A DNA stretch of 64,000 nt from a virus. The notes beneath the pieces were generated by a model. That model was given only the letters and a program-made list of their open reading frames with translations. It searched no databases and was not told the origin of the DNA. The position numbers and the translations under genes are program-made. Shown here piece after piece: positions 42,317-46,152 of the stretch; positions within the stretch are counted from its first letter, which is position 1, and each line of letters begins with the position of its first letter. The stretch lies in the IMG/VR virus record IMGVR_UViG_3300027815_000003, positions 96,001 through 160,000 of that record. The stretch is one strand, 5' to 3'.

Positions 42317-42979
42317 TTACAAATAATCTTTCATTTCTTGTTCTATAAACGACATATTATCCCTATATAATACTTTTTGTTTATCATTTATTATTTTATC
42401 TTTTTCTGACTGGATATCATTTCCCAAATTACTTTTTTCTAAAATTTCTCTTCCGAATTCCCTTTCTATTCTTTTGTCTATTTTATTGTCTGTAATATAG
42501 TTATATATCTCTGTAGTAACATACATTTTCCAATAATCTTTTCTTGCAATTGCTATTCTTATATAGGTGCTACTTACTGGGACATATAAAGTTGTGATTT
42601 CTTTCGGATCAATTACGTTGTAATATGATTTTAATAGTTCTTTTACAAAACTATTCCCAGAAATAAAACCATCTGTTTCGCCAAATAATTCTATGGTTTC
42701 TTTTGCCCATTTTTCACCATTAGAATATTTTGGTGTTTGTGCATAGTCTGGGACTTCTATTATATGATAATTTTTAAAATCACTACCAATTGATATATTT
42801 ATCATATCTTTTACTTCTTGTACAGTAAACGGATTCAGATAATTATATCTGTTTGAAGAGCCTATACCTATAATTACCTCTTGGGATAAAATACACGTAG
42901 ATTGCAATAGGGAAACATGCCCTTTATGTAAAGGGCGAAATCTTCCGATAAGTCCTAATTTGTTATAAATCTTATCCAT
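42317..42979 (-). CDS. nadM: NMN/NaMN adenylyltransferase (NadM-like)
   Basis: IGRFRPLHKGH (HxGH), GIGSSN, NPFT, SSTYIR; start moved to MDKIY (TAATG coupling). Confidence 0.8.
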   Translation of the reverse strand: MDKIYNKLGLIGRFRPLHKGHVSLLQSTCILSQEVIIGIGSSNRYNYLNPFTVQEVKDMINISIGSDFKNYHIIEVPDYAQTPKYSNGEKWAKETIELFGETDGFISGNSFVKELLKSYYNVIDPKEITTLYVPVSSTYIRIAIARKDYWKMYVTTEIYNYITDNKIDKRIEREFGREILEKSNLGNDIQSEKDKIINDKQKVLYRDNMSFIEQEMKDYL

Positions 42980-43857
42980 TATAAAAGTATAGCTCCAGGA
43001 TATTGCCAACTATAACGTAAATGTCCATCTGGGAAAAATATAAGCTGTCTCATTTCTTCTGTATTTTTATCAACTGTTAAACAATTTGTTAGGCATACAT
43101 TTTGACCATTTACATCATAAACAATTGCACCGTGAGGAAGATTTAAAATTTCATTACCATGACAATCTAAATAGGATTTTATTTTATTTCTGTCTTCTAT
43201 TTTTATTAGATTGTTCTTAGTCCATTCTAAGACCTTTTCATTATCAGAAATTTCTGTTAATGTTACTGGACAAAGAGTAAGTTGTTCCACTTTATTTTCA
43301 GAAGCGAAATTAATTAAATTTTGTACATCTTTTATATTATCTATATAGTCTTTACATAAAGTACACTTTAAACGTACAGAAAATCCAAATGAATGAAGTT
43401 TTTTGATTAGTTTTGGTATATCTATGTATTTTTCTTTATACGGGGTCATTAATTGTCTGTTCTTCTCTTGGTCATAATGAACAATAGAAATAGCTATTGT
43501 AGATAATCCGTAATCATACCATTGCCTTAAATATTCTTCGGATAATTGATTTTCAGCTAAAAAGATACCATTTGTCTGTATTTCAATAATTGGGAACGGA
43601 TTATTCATATACATATAATGTAGATATGAGGTAATTTGTTTTGGGAATAATGTTGGTTCTCCCTTTGATGTAATTAAACACGTAGATACACCAGATTGTT
43701 TTGCTAAATCACAGGCAATTTTAAAGTTACGCCAATTTATCTGTTCTGGTTCTTTCAATTCGACTCCGTTAGTAGGAGTCATTTTTGCGATACAAAATGG
43801 ACATCTTGCATTACAGGCTAATGTACCAGCCACTAAAGTAAATGTACTAATTTTCAT
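42979..43857 (-). CDS. Radical SAM enzyme of unknown function
   Basis: CNARCPFC (CxxxCxxC), KGEPTL, QTNG. Confidence 0.85.
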   Translation of the reverse strand: MKISTFTLVAGTLACNARCPFCIAKMTPTNGVELKEPEQINWRNFKIACDLAKQSGVSTCLITSKGEPTLFPKQITSYLHYMYMNNPFPIIEIQTNGIFLAENQLSEEYLRQWYDYGLSTIAISIVHYDQEKNRQLMTPYKEKYIDIPKLIKKLHSFGFSVRLKCTLCKDYIDNIKDVQNLINFASENKVEQLTLCPVTLTEISDNEKVLEWTKNNLIKIEDRNKIKSYLDCHGNEILNLPHGAIVYDVNGQNVCLTNCLTVDKNTEEMRQLIFFPDGHLRYSWQYPGAILL

Positions 43858-43859
43858 TT

Positions 43860-44180
43860 TTACCAATCACTTTCTTTTCTAAATAAATTAAATAAAATTT
43901 CCCTTAATTCATTTTTTACTTTATCAGTATTATTATTTGTTATTTTCTTTTCTATTAGTTTGTCGATTGTGGATATCAATTTTTCTACATCATCATTTGT
44001 TTTTTCAGACATATGTTCAAAACAAATAACAGTTCCTTCTATTTTATTTAATCCAGTTTTTACATTTATTAAATTCTTATTTTTGTCCTCATAAAACCAG
44101 TTATGTATTTTTTCATTGATTAACAATAAATTAACATCACATTTATTACAGATATTATTTATTATTATTCTTTGATCCAC
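43860..44180 (-). CDS. Hypothetical protein within the NAD operon
   Basis: Start moved to GTG at 44180 with GAGGAG RBS (MDQRIII). Confidence 0.55.
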   Translation of the reverse strand: MDQRIIINNICNKCDVNLLLINEKIHNWFYEDKNKNLINVKTGLNKIEGTVICFEHMSEKTNDDVEKLISTIDKLIEKKITNNNTDKVKNELREILFNLFRKESDW

Positions 44181-44785
44181 TCTAATATCTCCTCTGTATC
44201 CATAAAAATAACGCCATTTTCCAACCATTTTTCTTTTGTCGAAGGGATACTTGGTAATTCTTTTATTGCGTCTTCTACAACTATAATTTGTTTTTTCATT
44301 TTTAATAAACCTGAAACTGCTTGATCCACACAAACATTTCCAGCAACACCAAAACAAATTATAACTTCTGGATTAATTAATTTTACTATTTCTTTTGTAT
44401 GTTTATTCCCAGCAAAAACATCAAAAACATCTTTATATATTACGATATTTCTTGTATTTATTGTTTTTTTAGAGTTTAATATTTCATCTTTATAATGGAC
44501 AATATAGGGTTTTTCTGGTTTTGTTGCCTCTATATATTCAAAACCAGGGGTATCAATGATACAATGTCGTGGAAATGTATTTTGAAAATCTGGTGTATCT
44601 GACAGTTCTTTAGAATATTTTGTATGGGAGTCCGCAGAATTAATTACCTGGATGTTATATTGTTTTGCACTATCTGTTAATAACTTTAAATTAGGTTCAA
44701 TTAATTCAGCATCTTGTACATACAATTTGCCTTCTTTTCTCATAAAATCAAATTGTGTATCAACATTCCAAAAAATAATTTTCAT
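44165..44785 (-). CDS. pncA: Nicotinamidase (isochorismatase family)
   Basis: VDTQFDFM...G.LYV, DSH, FPRHC, K, GVAGNVCV catalytic set. Confidence 0.85.
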   Translation of the reverse strand: MKIIFWNVDTQFDFMRKEGKLYVQDAELIEPNLKLLTDSAKQYNIQVINSADSHTKYSKELSDTPDFQNTFPRHCIIDTPGFEYIEATKPEKPYIVHYKDEILNSKKTINTRNIVIYKDVFDVFAGNKHTKEIVKLINPEVIICFGVAGNVCVDQAVSGLLKMKKQIIVVEDAIKELPSIPSTKEKWLENGVIFMDTEEILEWIKE

Positions 44786-44796
44786 GTTTTACTCCT

Positions 44797-46152
44797 TTAT
44801 CTTATTAATTCATTTAGTTTTTTAGATATATTTATCGGATAATTAGTTTCCACCTTTATTGTTTTTAAATAATCTGGAAGTTTTTTTACTTCCATTAATG
44901 ATTTTTCTCTTATCTTATATAACGTTTTTTCCTGATATGCTATTGTACCATCTTTTATCTTGTTTGTCAATAGCTTACTTGTTATTTCCTCCACACCAAC
45001 TACCCCTTCATTATTTAAATGTATTTTATCATTGATAAACTCTTCTCCATATTTTGCATGGAATCTGGTAATTTGTTTTTTGCCAGGATAAGTTATTTTA
45101 CCTTCTGACTTTTTCATTACCACACCATTTTTATTTTCTACCATTTTATAAACACCACCAATAGCGGCAGTCGGTTTTGAGGTTATCATTTCTGTCCCAA
45201 CACCAAAACTATCAATAGGTAAATTATAGTCATTTAGAAATCTAGCTATTTTATATTCATTTAGATCATTACTTACGACTATTTTTACATAATTTAATCC
45301 AGATTCATCAAGAATACCCCTGACTACTGGGACATTTAATGTAAAATCACCAGAATCTATTCTTATTGCATTAAGTTTTTCCCCTCTAGATTCCATTTCT
45401 TTTGCAATAATAACTGCATTTTTAGCACCCTGAAAAATATTGTAGGTATCAATAAGTAGTGTAGAATTATTAGGAAATGATTTTACATAAGCCCTAAATG
45501 CATCTAGTTCATTATCAAATGCCATTACGAAAGAATGTGCATGTGTTCCAGATAAAGGAATATTATATTTTGTCCCAGCTTCTACATTGCTTGTCCCAGT
45601 ACAACCACCAATATAACATGCTTTTGCCCCCAAGACACCAGCCTCTTCTCCGTGTGCCCTCCGTAAACCAAAATCAACAACTGGTTTATTCTTTGCAGCA
45701 TTAACAATTCTACTTGCTTTTGATGCAATCATTATTTGAAAATTAAGTTGATTAAGAATAAATGTTTCCAGTAATTGCGCTTGAATTAGTGGTGCTGTAA
45801 CCTGTAAAATTGGTTCGTTTGGGAAAACTATACTACCTTCATCCATAGCATTTATAGAACCAGTAAATTGAAAATTATTTAAATAATCTAACGTCTTTTT
45901 ATTTAATATTTTATTTTTAAATAAATATTCTCTACTTGTACTGTCAGATAAATTATAGTGTTTGAACGTTAAACTTAATTCTGTAATATCTTTTATAAGT
46001 TTATCAATTCCACAAATAATAAAATAGCCCCAATCTTGGGGCAAAGAACGAATAAAATATTCAAATGTTACTATATCTTCTGCTTTACCAGAATCTAAAT
46101 AGGATTGTGCCATTGTAAGTTGGTATAAATCAGTTAATGCTAAATTAGACAT
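44797..46152 (-). CDS. pncB: Nicotinate phosphoribosyltransferase (PncB type)
   Basis: TDLYQLTM, DFGLRRAHG, GTSNV, GTHAHSF, LIDTY, RIDSGD, FGVGT, GVYK; lacks the NAMPT-type TDSYK motif. Confidence 0.9.
   Translation of the reverse strand: MSNLALTDLYQLTMAQSYLDSGKAEDIVTFEYFIRSLPQDWGYFIICGIDKLIKDITELSLTFKHYNLSDSTSREYLFKNKILNKKTLDYLNNFQFTGSINAMDEGSIVFPNEPILQVTAPLIQAQLLETFILNQLNFQIMIASKASRIVNAAKNKPVVDFGLRRAHGEEAGVLGAKACYIGGCTGTSNVEAGTKYNIPLSGTHAHSFVMAFDNELDAFRAYVKSFPNNSTLLIDTYNIFQGAKNAVIIAKEMESRGEKLNAIRIDSGDFTLNVPVVRGILDESGLNYVKIVVSNDLNEYKIARFLNDYNLPIDSFGVGTEMITSKPTAAIGGVYKMVENKNGVVMKKSEGKITYPGKKQITRFHAKYGEEFINDKIHLNNEGVVGVEEITSKLLTNKIKDGTIAYQEKTLYKIREKSLMEVKKLPDYLKTIKVETNYPINISKKLNELIR

Follow-up and report, generated by a model that had tools for sequence, protein, structure and literature searches.

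A virus-borne gene cluster predicted to run part of a deamidating NAD salvage route, and its radical-SAM companion

Phage-encoded routes for rebuilding nicotinamide adenine dinucleotide (NAD) include NARP1, composed of Adps and Namat, NARP2, composed of Nampt and Nmnat (Osterman et al., 2024), and NARP3, composed of PnuC and NadR (PMC13464706, August 2026). Preiss-Handler clusters have been catalogued in jumbo phages (the "NAD-jumbo phages"), with mention of a phage pncA (PMC11662467, 2024), and the NrtR-regulated pncA-pncB-nadD-nadE operons (PMC2330246) provide a further, cellular comparison. In DPANN archaea and bacteria of the candidate phyla radiation (CPR), NAD clusters typically follow the order PncB-PncA-NadE-radical-SAM (S-adenosylmethionine) enzyme (rSAM)-pyridoxal phosphate (PLP) enzyme-Nudix-NadA-ADP-ribosylglycohydrolase (ARH)-NAD kinase (NadK). 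Here, we describe a five-gene operon that combines PncB, a PncA-like protein, a small open reading frame (ORF), an rSAM enzyme, and a NadM-type adenylyltransferase. It lies in the window, that is, the whole stretch of 64,000 nucleotides that was analyzed (bases 96001-160000 of the 190,284-bp IMG/VR virus record IMGVR_UViG_3300027815_000003). On balance, the operon is probably a phage copy of part of a DPANN/CPR NAD cluster, running deamidating (PncA plus Preiss-Handler) salvage. The record, from an uncultured virus in a groundwater sample, has a CheckV completeness of 94% and a G+C content of about 28%, and contains head and tail genes.

Layout of the operon and its predicted enzymes

The original prediction, made from the window, described five tightly packed genes with PncB, PncA, rSAM, and NadM motifs, and the ORFs were found on the minus strand exactly as placed there:

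44797..46152, minus strand: PncB, nicotinate phosphoribosyltransferase (PRTase) of type II, 451 aa (TIGR01513)
44165..44785, minus strand: PncA-like protein, 206 aa, predicted to be a divergent nicotinamidase (PF00857)
43860..44180, minus strand: small orphan ORF, 106 aa, with CxxC ... CxxH (ORF call)
42979..43857, minus strand: rSAM enzyme, 292 aa (PF04055, CNARCPFC)
42317..42979, minus strand: NadM-type adenylyltransferase, 220 aa, without a Nudix domain (PF01467; best matches are the archaeal models of nicotinamide mononucleotide (NMN) adenylyltransferase, NMNAT)

In the ORF calls, these five co-oriented genes (46152-42317) abut or overlap one another. The 11-nt gap between PncB and PncA contains an AAGGAG Shine-Dalgarno site for the PncA-like gene. 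The small ORF, which a public gene caller likewise gives as 106 aa, starts with GTG, is preceded by GAGGAG at a distance of 8 nt, and shares 16 nt with the end of the PncA gene; the rSAM ATG is located 2 nt past the small-ORF stop, and the NadM start overlaps the rSAM stop (TAATG, with the ATG sharing one base with the stop codon). Five functionally related genes with such overlaps are not a chance pattern, and their tight packing indicates one transcription unit. A consensus promoter scan of the operon yielded matches at the level of shuffled sequence, and a terminator scan placed none between the operon genes. No copy of TACGTA-N4-TACGTA, a candidate operator of this phage, was found in the vicinity of the operon.

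The phage PRTase was originally predicted to be of the nicotinate type and not a NAMPT, and classification with profile models agrees. PncB scored 454.4 bits against TIGR01513, above the equivalog cut-off of 297.4, and carries all three Pfam domains of the family—NAPRTase_N, NAPRTase, and NAPRTase_C (PF17767, PF04095, PF17956)—as well as an LTDLYQLTM motif. Its best PDB sequence match is the NAPRTase of E. faecalis (2f7f, 9e-76), followed by human NAPRT (4yub, 1e-44), with no NAMPT chain among the PDB matches at E<=1e-5. The GTHAHS motif of PncB aligns identically to those of solved NAPRTases; its His is presumably the ATP-coupling phospho-His. PncB is the sole NAPRTase-family gene in the 190-kb record, its nearest relatives (50-54% identical) being from Nano- and Woesearchaeota, and it is 38% identical to gp277 of Bacillus phage G.

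The proposed pairing with a nicotinamidase is likewise upheld, all catalytic and metal residues being kept in the neighboring PncA-like protein (PF00857, 44 bits), by score a generic member of the isochorismatase family. D9, D52, H54, and H74 align with the catalytic Asp and the metal ligands of M. tuberculosis PncA (3pl1) and P. horikoshii nicotinamidase (1ilw), and D9, D13, D52, H54, H74, and C152 are invariant in 22 homologues, canonical nicotinamidases included. The predicted triad is D9-K118-C152, with K118 placed by the YKD motif (MAFFT offset the Lys by a few columns), and the predicted metal site is formed by D52, H54, and H74 (DxH ... PxHC). Nicotinamidases take the first seven places among the PDB matches of the family profile, a ranking that is supportive but not independent, since the profile contains some canonical nicotinamidases. 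Triad and metal site are both intact in this predicted divergent subfamily of nicotinamidases.

The adenylyltransferase was assigned to NadM by its GRFRPLHKGH (HxGH) and SSTYIR (ISxTxxR) motifs, which characterize single-domain enzymes of about 170 aa; its C terminus extends into a low-complexity tail of some 50 aa. Its best PDB match, M. jannaschii MJ0541 (1f9a, 7.6e-10), was aligned over residues 10-170. It is the sole cytidylyltransferase-like gene in the record and has no kinase domain. Archaeal NadM is reported to be bifunctional for NMN and nicotinate mononucleotide (NaMN), and to be the only adenylyltransferase of archaea (PMC3376133); in bacteria, nadM-pncB operons are known (PMC2330246). 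The best relatives of the phage protein occur in DPANN NAD clusters (1e-39 to 1e-48). One DPANN locus (L107) contains a window-type NadM with PncB, PncA, and NadE, with no NadV-type gene recognized nearby, and two others (L100 and L073) contain one alongside NadE. These NadM relatives neighbor NadE, suggesting that the subfamily works in a deamidated context. Activity of the phage enzyme on NaMN is plausible, and this step is the weakest link of the proposed route.

The best relatives of PncB, PncA, rSAM, and NadM alike come from NAD clusters of Nanoarchaeota and Woesearchaeota, with identities of 50-60% and phmmer values of 1e-39 to 1e-130. The operon resembles the DPANN/CPR clusters in its four recognizable genes and in the PncB-PncA order; it differs in being a subset without NadE, the PLP partner, ARH, NadK, and a linked Nudix gene (the searches of the record did not extend to NadA). 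NAD synthetase (NadE, PF02540) gave no match in the 190-kb record, the positive control having rung in 14/14 genomes, and at 94% completeness there is a small chance that NadE lies in the missing part. Neither ARH nor NAD kinase was found in the 190-kb record, and its one Nudix gene is about 10 kb from the operon. A full Preiss-Handler set (PncB, NadD/NadM, and NadE) is thus not present, NadE not being encoded.

A close relative of the operon, on a 9.9-kb metagenomic contig (L142), encodes a PncB 79% and a PncA about 75% identical to those of the window. In this contig, a 180-aa ORF and a flotillin/SPFH (Band 7) gene come after PncB-PncA and precede homologues of the window's next two genes. 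The 180-aa ORF, which has no significant family match, and the flotillin/SPFH gene occupy L142:2439-4425, in the position where the window has the small ORF-rSAM-NadM segment. Thus, the L142 arrangement marks PncB-PncA as the conserved core, with small ORF-rSAM-NadM as a variable cassette.

Nicotinamide is the base freed when NAD is consumed or cleaved. In the proposed mechanism, PncA would convert nicotinamide into nicotinate by hydrolysis, PncB would couple nicotinate with phosphoribosyl pyrophosphate (PRPP) to yield NaMN in an ATP-coupled reaction, and the NadM-type enzyme, which probably takes NMN too, would adenylylate NaMN to nicotinate adenine dinucleotide (NaAD). Amidation of NaAD to NAD would then be left to the NadE of the host, as had been proposed, because the record has no NadE. 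The small ORF, rSAM, and NadM would constitute the variable cassette added to the PncB-PncA core, and the system would keep NAD available during infection, including its rebuilding after an NAD-cleaving defense has fired. The substrates, flux, dependence on host NadE, and purpose of the operon are what we infer from these genes.

Several points weigh against this mechanism. The enzyme activities of the operon are predicted, the presence of NadE in the host is assumed, and a tie of the operon to any defense system would be by analogy. NadE is found in 9 of the 11 viral PncB loci representing other phage clusters (counts of loci, here and below, refer to 53 viral and 80 cellular rSAM loci that were fetched, 133 in total, with NAD genes counted within the fetched flanks), and the present operon, lacking it, might lead to another end product. 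The cut-offs of specific models are not reached by the PncA-like protein (17.5 bits vs. 174 for the E. coli-type equivalog model NF008623) or by the NadM-type protein (72.4 bits vs. 127 for NF002243, and 56.2 bits vs. 181 for TIGR01527); both proteins are thus divergent. Bacterial NadM-Nudix enzymes act with NadV on NMN, and a survey of viral proteomes saw NadM solely with NadV (PMC9503650). Finally, neither NadM nor rSAM is present at the cassette position in the 9.9-kb contig of L142; since L142 has PncB-PncA without NadM, NadM is not required for the core function.

Named pathways and precedents in other phages

As originally predicted, the operon is neither NARP1, because there is no Adps gene, nor NARP2, because the sole NAPRTase-superfamily gene is of the PncB type; nor is it NARP3, because there is no PnuC and the single cytidylyltransferase-like gene lacks a kinase domain. 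In the 190-kb record, PRPP-synthetase-like Adps (PF13793) and PnuC (PF04973) gave no match, and no second adenylyltransferase and no second PRTase, hence no NadV, were found. What the operon shares with NARP2 and with NadV-NatV of phage KVP40 is a phage-encoded, nicotinamide-based, PRPP-dependent salvage ending in an adenylyltransferase of the NadM family. It differs from them in having an NAPRT instead of an NAMPT, in the additional deamidation step, and in the predicted end of its own enzymes at NaAD, with the need for a host NadE.

A P-loop protein of 171 aa encoded 11 kb from the operon (57754-58269, minus strand) matches PF13521 (AAA_28) with 42.8 bits. It was considered as a NadR kinase, which would open a second, amidated route, and was rejected, the match to TIGR01526 being weak (20.9 bits) and PDB support absent. 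If this protein were a nicotinamide riboside (NR) kinase, NadM would also serve an NR-to-NMN-to-NAD branch.

The closest precedents are found in large phages. In Bacillus phage G (GenBank JN638751), a Nudix hydrolase, the isochorismatase gp275, the NaPRT gp277, the NaMNAT gp281, and the NAD synthetase gp283 are annotated within 7 kb; the role of its PncA-like gene was called unknown in a 2025 paper on this phage. Agrobacterium phage Atu_ph07 encodes PncB, NadM-like, and PncA-like genes together with an ADP-ribose (ADPR) pyrophosphatase, and a 735-kb phage and Sinorhizobium phage Phosso each have both PncB and PncA. Among IMG/VR contigs, PncB and PncA were found with NadE in the fetched stretch of L027, and with both NadD/M and NadE in L009-L012, L037, and L044, the order in L009-L012 being PncA-rSAM-PncB-NadD-NadE. 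In GenBank, 24 and 13 of 50,697 phage records were obtained for the two PncB types. A scan of IMG/VR with a PncB alignment gave 2 loci, a number that reflects narrow patterns and is not a frequency of pncA+pncB+nadM in phages.

The clusters of phage G, Atu_ph07, and the NAD-jumbo phages resemble the operon in bringing together a nicotinamidase, a nicotinate PRTase, and an adenylyltransferase; like it, the giant-phage NAD clusters are known from their genes. The operon differs from them in lacking NadE, in having an adenylyltransferase of the NadM and not the NadD type, and in carrying the rSAM gene and the orphan ORF. A profile of the rSAM family gave no match in the PncB stretches of phage G (about 11 kb) and Atu_ph07 (about 10 kb). 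The genome to which the window belongs, at 190 kb, is also below the jumbo threshold, unlike those of the giant phages. The suggestion of a new "third phage route" therefore does not hold: such gene sets are already present in phage G, Atu_ph07, and the IMG/VR contigs and have been catalogued (PMC11662467), and the name NARP3 has been taken by PnuC+NadR. The deamidating gene set is already known as a kind, and the differences of this operon are the absence of NadE, a NadM-type enzyme without NadV, and the rSAM gene.

The radical-SAM enzyme and the small ORF

The rSAM gene, treated as a bystander in the original prediction, is in fact a habitual member of NAD clusters. At least one NAD gene is located near rSAM in 56 of the 80 cellular loci and in 14 of the 53 viral loci; the most frequent cellular neighbors are NadK (42 loci), NadD/M (34), NadE (32), PncA (31), and PncB (29). 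A PLP aminotransferase-like gene is present in 28 of the 80 cellular loci, in 25 of these directly downstream of rSAM, and neither this gene nor NadK was found in any of the 53 viral rSAM loci. In a quick tree, for which a careful search was left unfinished, the NAD-linked members are scattered across the rSAM family, and the NAD link is therefore not one inherited block. Phage rSAM loci without NAD genes showed no other common theme, their neighbors being RtcB, an FkbM methyltransferase, HD, a sigma factor, AAA, and aldehyde dehydrogenase genes. When IMG/VR was scanned with a single rSAM protein, nothing was found, whereas the rSAM alignment recovered 54 loci.

In three loci from Obscuribacterales (L074, L080, and L088), rSAM comes after two tandem large proteins (about 470-650 aa) and an NAD-kinase-like gene, with no PncA or PncB; cytidylyltransferase-like domains were confirmed by Pfam in a 550-aa protein of L074. 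Since these loci are without PncA and PncB, the rSAM link is to NAD(P) genes in general.

The enzyme belongs to a highly conserved, unnamed MoaA/viperin-like family and ranks among the best-conserved proteins of the NAD clusters. Its homologues (n = 1528, about 291 aa, 50-60% identity) are distributed across CPR bacteria, DPANN archaea, Obscuribacterales, and phages, and no source was found to give the family a specific name, the automatic labels being "MoaA" or "radical SAM protein" only. The protein carries the cluster motif CNARCPFC, an N-terminal CX3CX2C, and has no PDB sequence match; in its AlphaFold2 model (pLDDT 81), the closest folds are those of MoaA (TMq 0.67) and viperin (TMq 0.57). 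The invariant cysteines of the family are solely C15, C19, C22, and C255, of which one is beyond the SAM cluster, and this single Cys argues against an auxiliary cluster of the MoaA type. Identification as MoaA, viperin, or QueE was rejected on the scores—45.9 bits against the MoaA model TIGR02666 (cut-off 284) and 34.5 bits against the viperin (pVip) model NF038283 (cut-off 180)—and on the missing auxiliary cysteines. With MoaA and viperin, rSAM has in common the partial TIM-barrel radical-SAM fold and the N-terminal CX3CX2C, but its gene is found in the context of NAD metabolism and not in that of molybdopterin synthesis or defense.

MoaA is a GTP 3',8-cyclase and viperin is a synthase of 3'-deoxy-3',4'-didehydro-CTP (ddhCTP), both acting on nucleoside triphosphates; we know of no radical step in NAD metabolism. 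It may be suggested, tentatively, that rSAM acts by a radical reaction not yet described, its substrate being a pyridine nucleotide or the ribose of one (NaMN, NaAD, NAD, or ADP-ribose), and that phages carry it without the cellular PLP and NadK partners, beside deamidating salvage genes, to make, repair, or protect an NAD-related molecule during infection. Its product might, for example, be an analogue of NAD by which NAD-cleaving defense enzymes are blocked or evaded.

The small ORF has no counterpart in any collection that was searched. It gave zero matches in Pfam, PHROG, and NCBIfam, and only a self-match among 5.8 billion proteins; tblastn of the 53 viral rSAM loci and a comparison with the ORFs of all 133 rSAM loci found none, and in the close relative L142 nothing similar is seen along the small-ORF segment.

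Alternative readings, genomic surroundings, and significance

The same genes might constitute a dedicated counter-defense, in which NAD would be rebuilt after the action of Thoeris, Sir2, DSR, or SEFIR-type NADases, as an analogue of NARP2 working via deamidated intermediates; the original prediction added that such intermediates may resist NADases, which is speculative. Such a role is reasonable by analogy, in that the operon would use nicotinamide, the product of NADase effectors, following the logic of NARP1 and NARP2; its neighbors include repair and protection genes (two RNA ligases, a polynucleotide kinase, a DNA ligase, and methylases), and such clusters recur sporadically in large phages. 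However, this route would need a host NadE, three ATP-consuming steps, and PRPP, no ADPR-recycling gene is present in the record, and the relative L142 is without half of the operon. No paper testing a deamidating phage route against an NAD-depleting defense was found in the searchable literature. The genes are, moreover, the ordinary NAD supply of small-genome CPR/DPANN organisms, and a plain metabolic boost of NAD in a salvage-dependent host explains them equally well. A dedicated counter-defense is thus possible but, in our estimate, rather unlikely.

The main rival reading, conceivable but rather doubtful, is that the operon consists of two modules and does not run one pathway: PncB-PncA would be a salvage unit handing NaMN to the host NadD and NadE, and small ORF-rSAM-NadM would have been acquired separately, with the nucleotidyltransferase and the radical enzyme acting jointly, perhaps in making or remodeling a modified (pyridine) nucleotide, or with NadM converting NMN to NAD. 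Consistent with this are the occupation of the cassette's place in L142 by the 180-aa ORF and flotillin/SPFH gene between flanks homologous on both sides, the overlap of the rSAM stop with the NadM start, and the adjacency of rSAM to an adenylyltransferase-family gene in L044, L049, L075, L108, and L128. The nearest folds of rSAM are those of the nucleotide-acting MoaA and viperin, phage NadM goes with NMN-forming enzymes in published surveys, and the weakly NadR-kinase-like P-loop gene is 11 kb off. On the other hand, the record has no securely identified NMN-forming enzyme, window-type NadM occurs in DPANN clusters with PncB and NadE, and the adjacency of rSAM and an adenylyltransferase is inconsistent, the commonest cellular neighbors being NadK (42/80) and the PLP enzyme (28/80).

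Least of all is it to be expected that the isochorismatase-family protein is some other cysteine hydrolase, with PncB using imported nicotinate and no recycling of nicotinamide: the low score to the PncA equivalog (17.5 bits vs. 174), the weak direct PDB matches (about 2e-4), an insertion of about 25 residues, and the altered motifs FWNVDTQ and YKDxFDVF would fit such a hydrolase, but none of the six nicotinamidase residues, three in the Asp-Lys-Cys triad and three in the Asp/His/His metal site in PxHC, has been lost, the family profile finds its top solved relatives among nicotinamidases, and of the 31 cellular loci that contain a PncA-family gene, 30 also contain PncB, usually adjacent to it.

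Partial copying of a DPANN/CPR NAD cluster for deamidating salvage remains the preferred reading of the operon. Two further genes of its surroundings were assigned as follows:

46918..48090, minus strand: ATP-dependent DNA ligase, context gene outside the operon (PF01068, 88.6 bits)
53329-54273, minus strand: adenylosuccinate-synthetase-like protein, 314 aa (PF00709; phrog_1211, PurZ-like group)

The ligase, predicted at about 0.8 kb upstream, is located 766 nt upstream of PncB, from which it is separated by two small ORFs without an assigned family (46154..46444 and 46451..46747). Near the adenylosuccinate-synthetase-like gene are a Nudix gene (56364-56825), a deoxynucleoside monophosphate kinase fused to a nucleoside 2-deoxyribosyltransferase-like domain (56822-57757), and an IMPDH/GMP-reductase-like gene (60754-61848), all on the minus strand; together with it, these three nucleotide genes may form a purine-modification module of the 2-aminoadenine type. 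Two N6/N4 DNA methylase genes, the first being the C-terminal domain part only (48917-49411 and 54864-55658), and a DUF1643 gene (51694-52362), all on the minus strand, are part of the same early or metabolic block. Downstream of the operon, an RNA-repair set is composed of two RNA ligases and a polynucleotide kinase (32091-33266, 35405-36310, and 40437-41126, all minus strand; phrog_968, phrog_505, and phrog_24030). Apart from an IS200/IS605-type "transposase" (TnpB-like, phrog_506, 1e-123) at 38870-40003, no sizeable gene lies on the plus strand between about 4 and 62 kb of the window. Outside the window, an AAA+ ATPase of 1002 aa is split by an intein that contains a LAGLIDADG endonuclease (G000:C1:26040-29048).

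The major capsid protein (26356-27723, minus strand) has GenBank virus matches solely to archaeal tailed viruses—Haloarcula HCTV-5, HVTV-1, and HCTV-1, and a Methanofastidiosa virus—over its C-terminal third, with about 32% identity, and the DPANN-archaea-like NAD genes point in the same direction. The virus also encodes a bacterial-type DNA polymerase III alpha (G000:C1:77381-79996). Because the capsid is archaeal-virus-like whereas the polymerase is bacterial in type, the host domain is ambiguous.

Because this gene set could already be seen in phage G in 2011 and such sets were catalogued in 2024, the present operon is of value as a compact, testable example and not as a discovery. All tested phage NAD-rebuilding routes (NARP1-3, 2024-2026) use, to our knowledge, amidated intermediates or ADP-ribose. 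If the nicotinamidase route is true, phages would plug into the host NadD and NadE steps with as few as two genes, and the PncB-PncA core of L142 suggests the same. The phage rSAM, without its cellular partners, would in turn provide a convenient minimal context for finding the substrate of this enzyme family.

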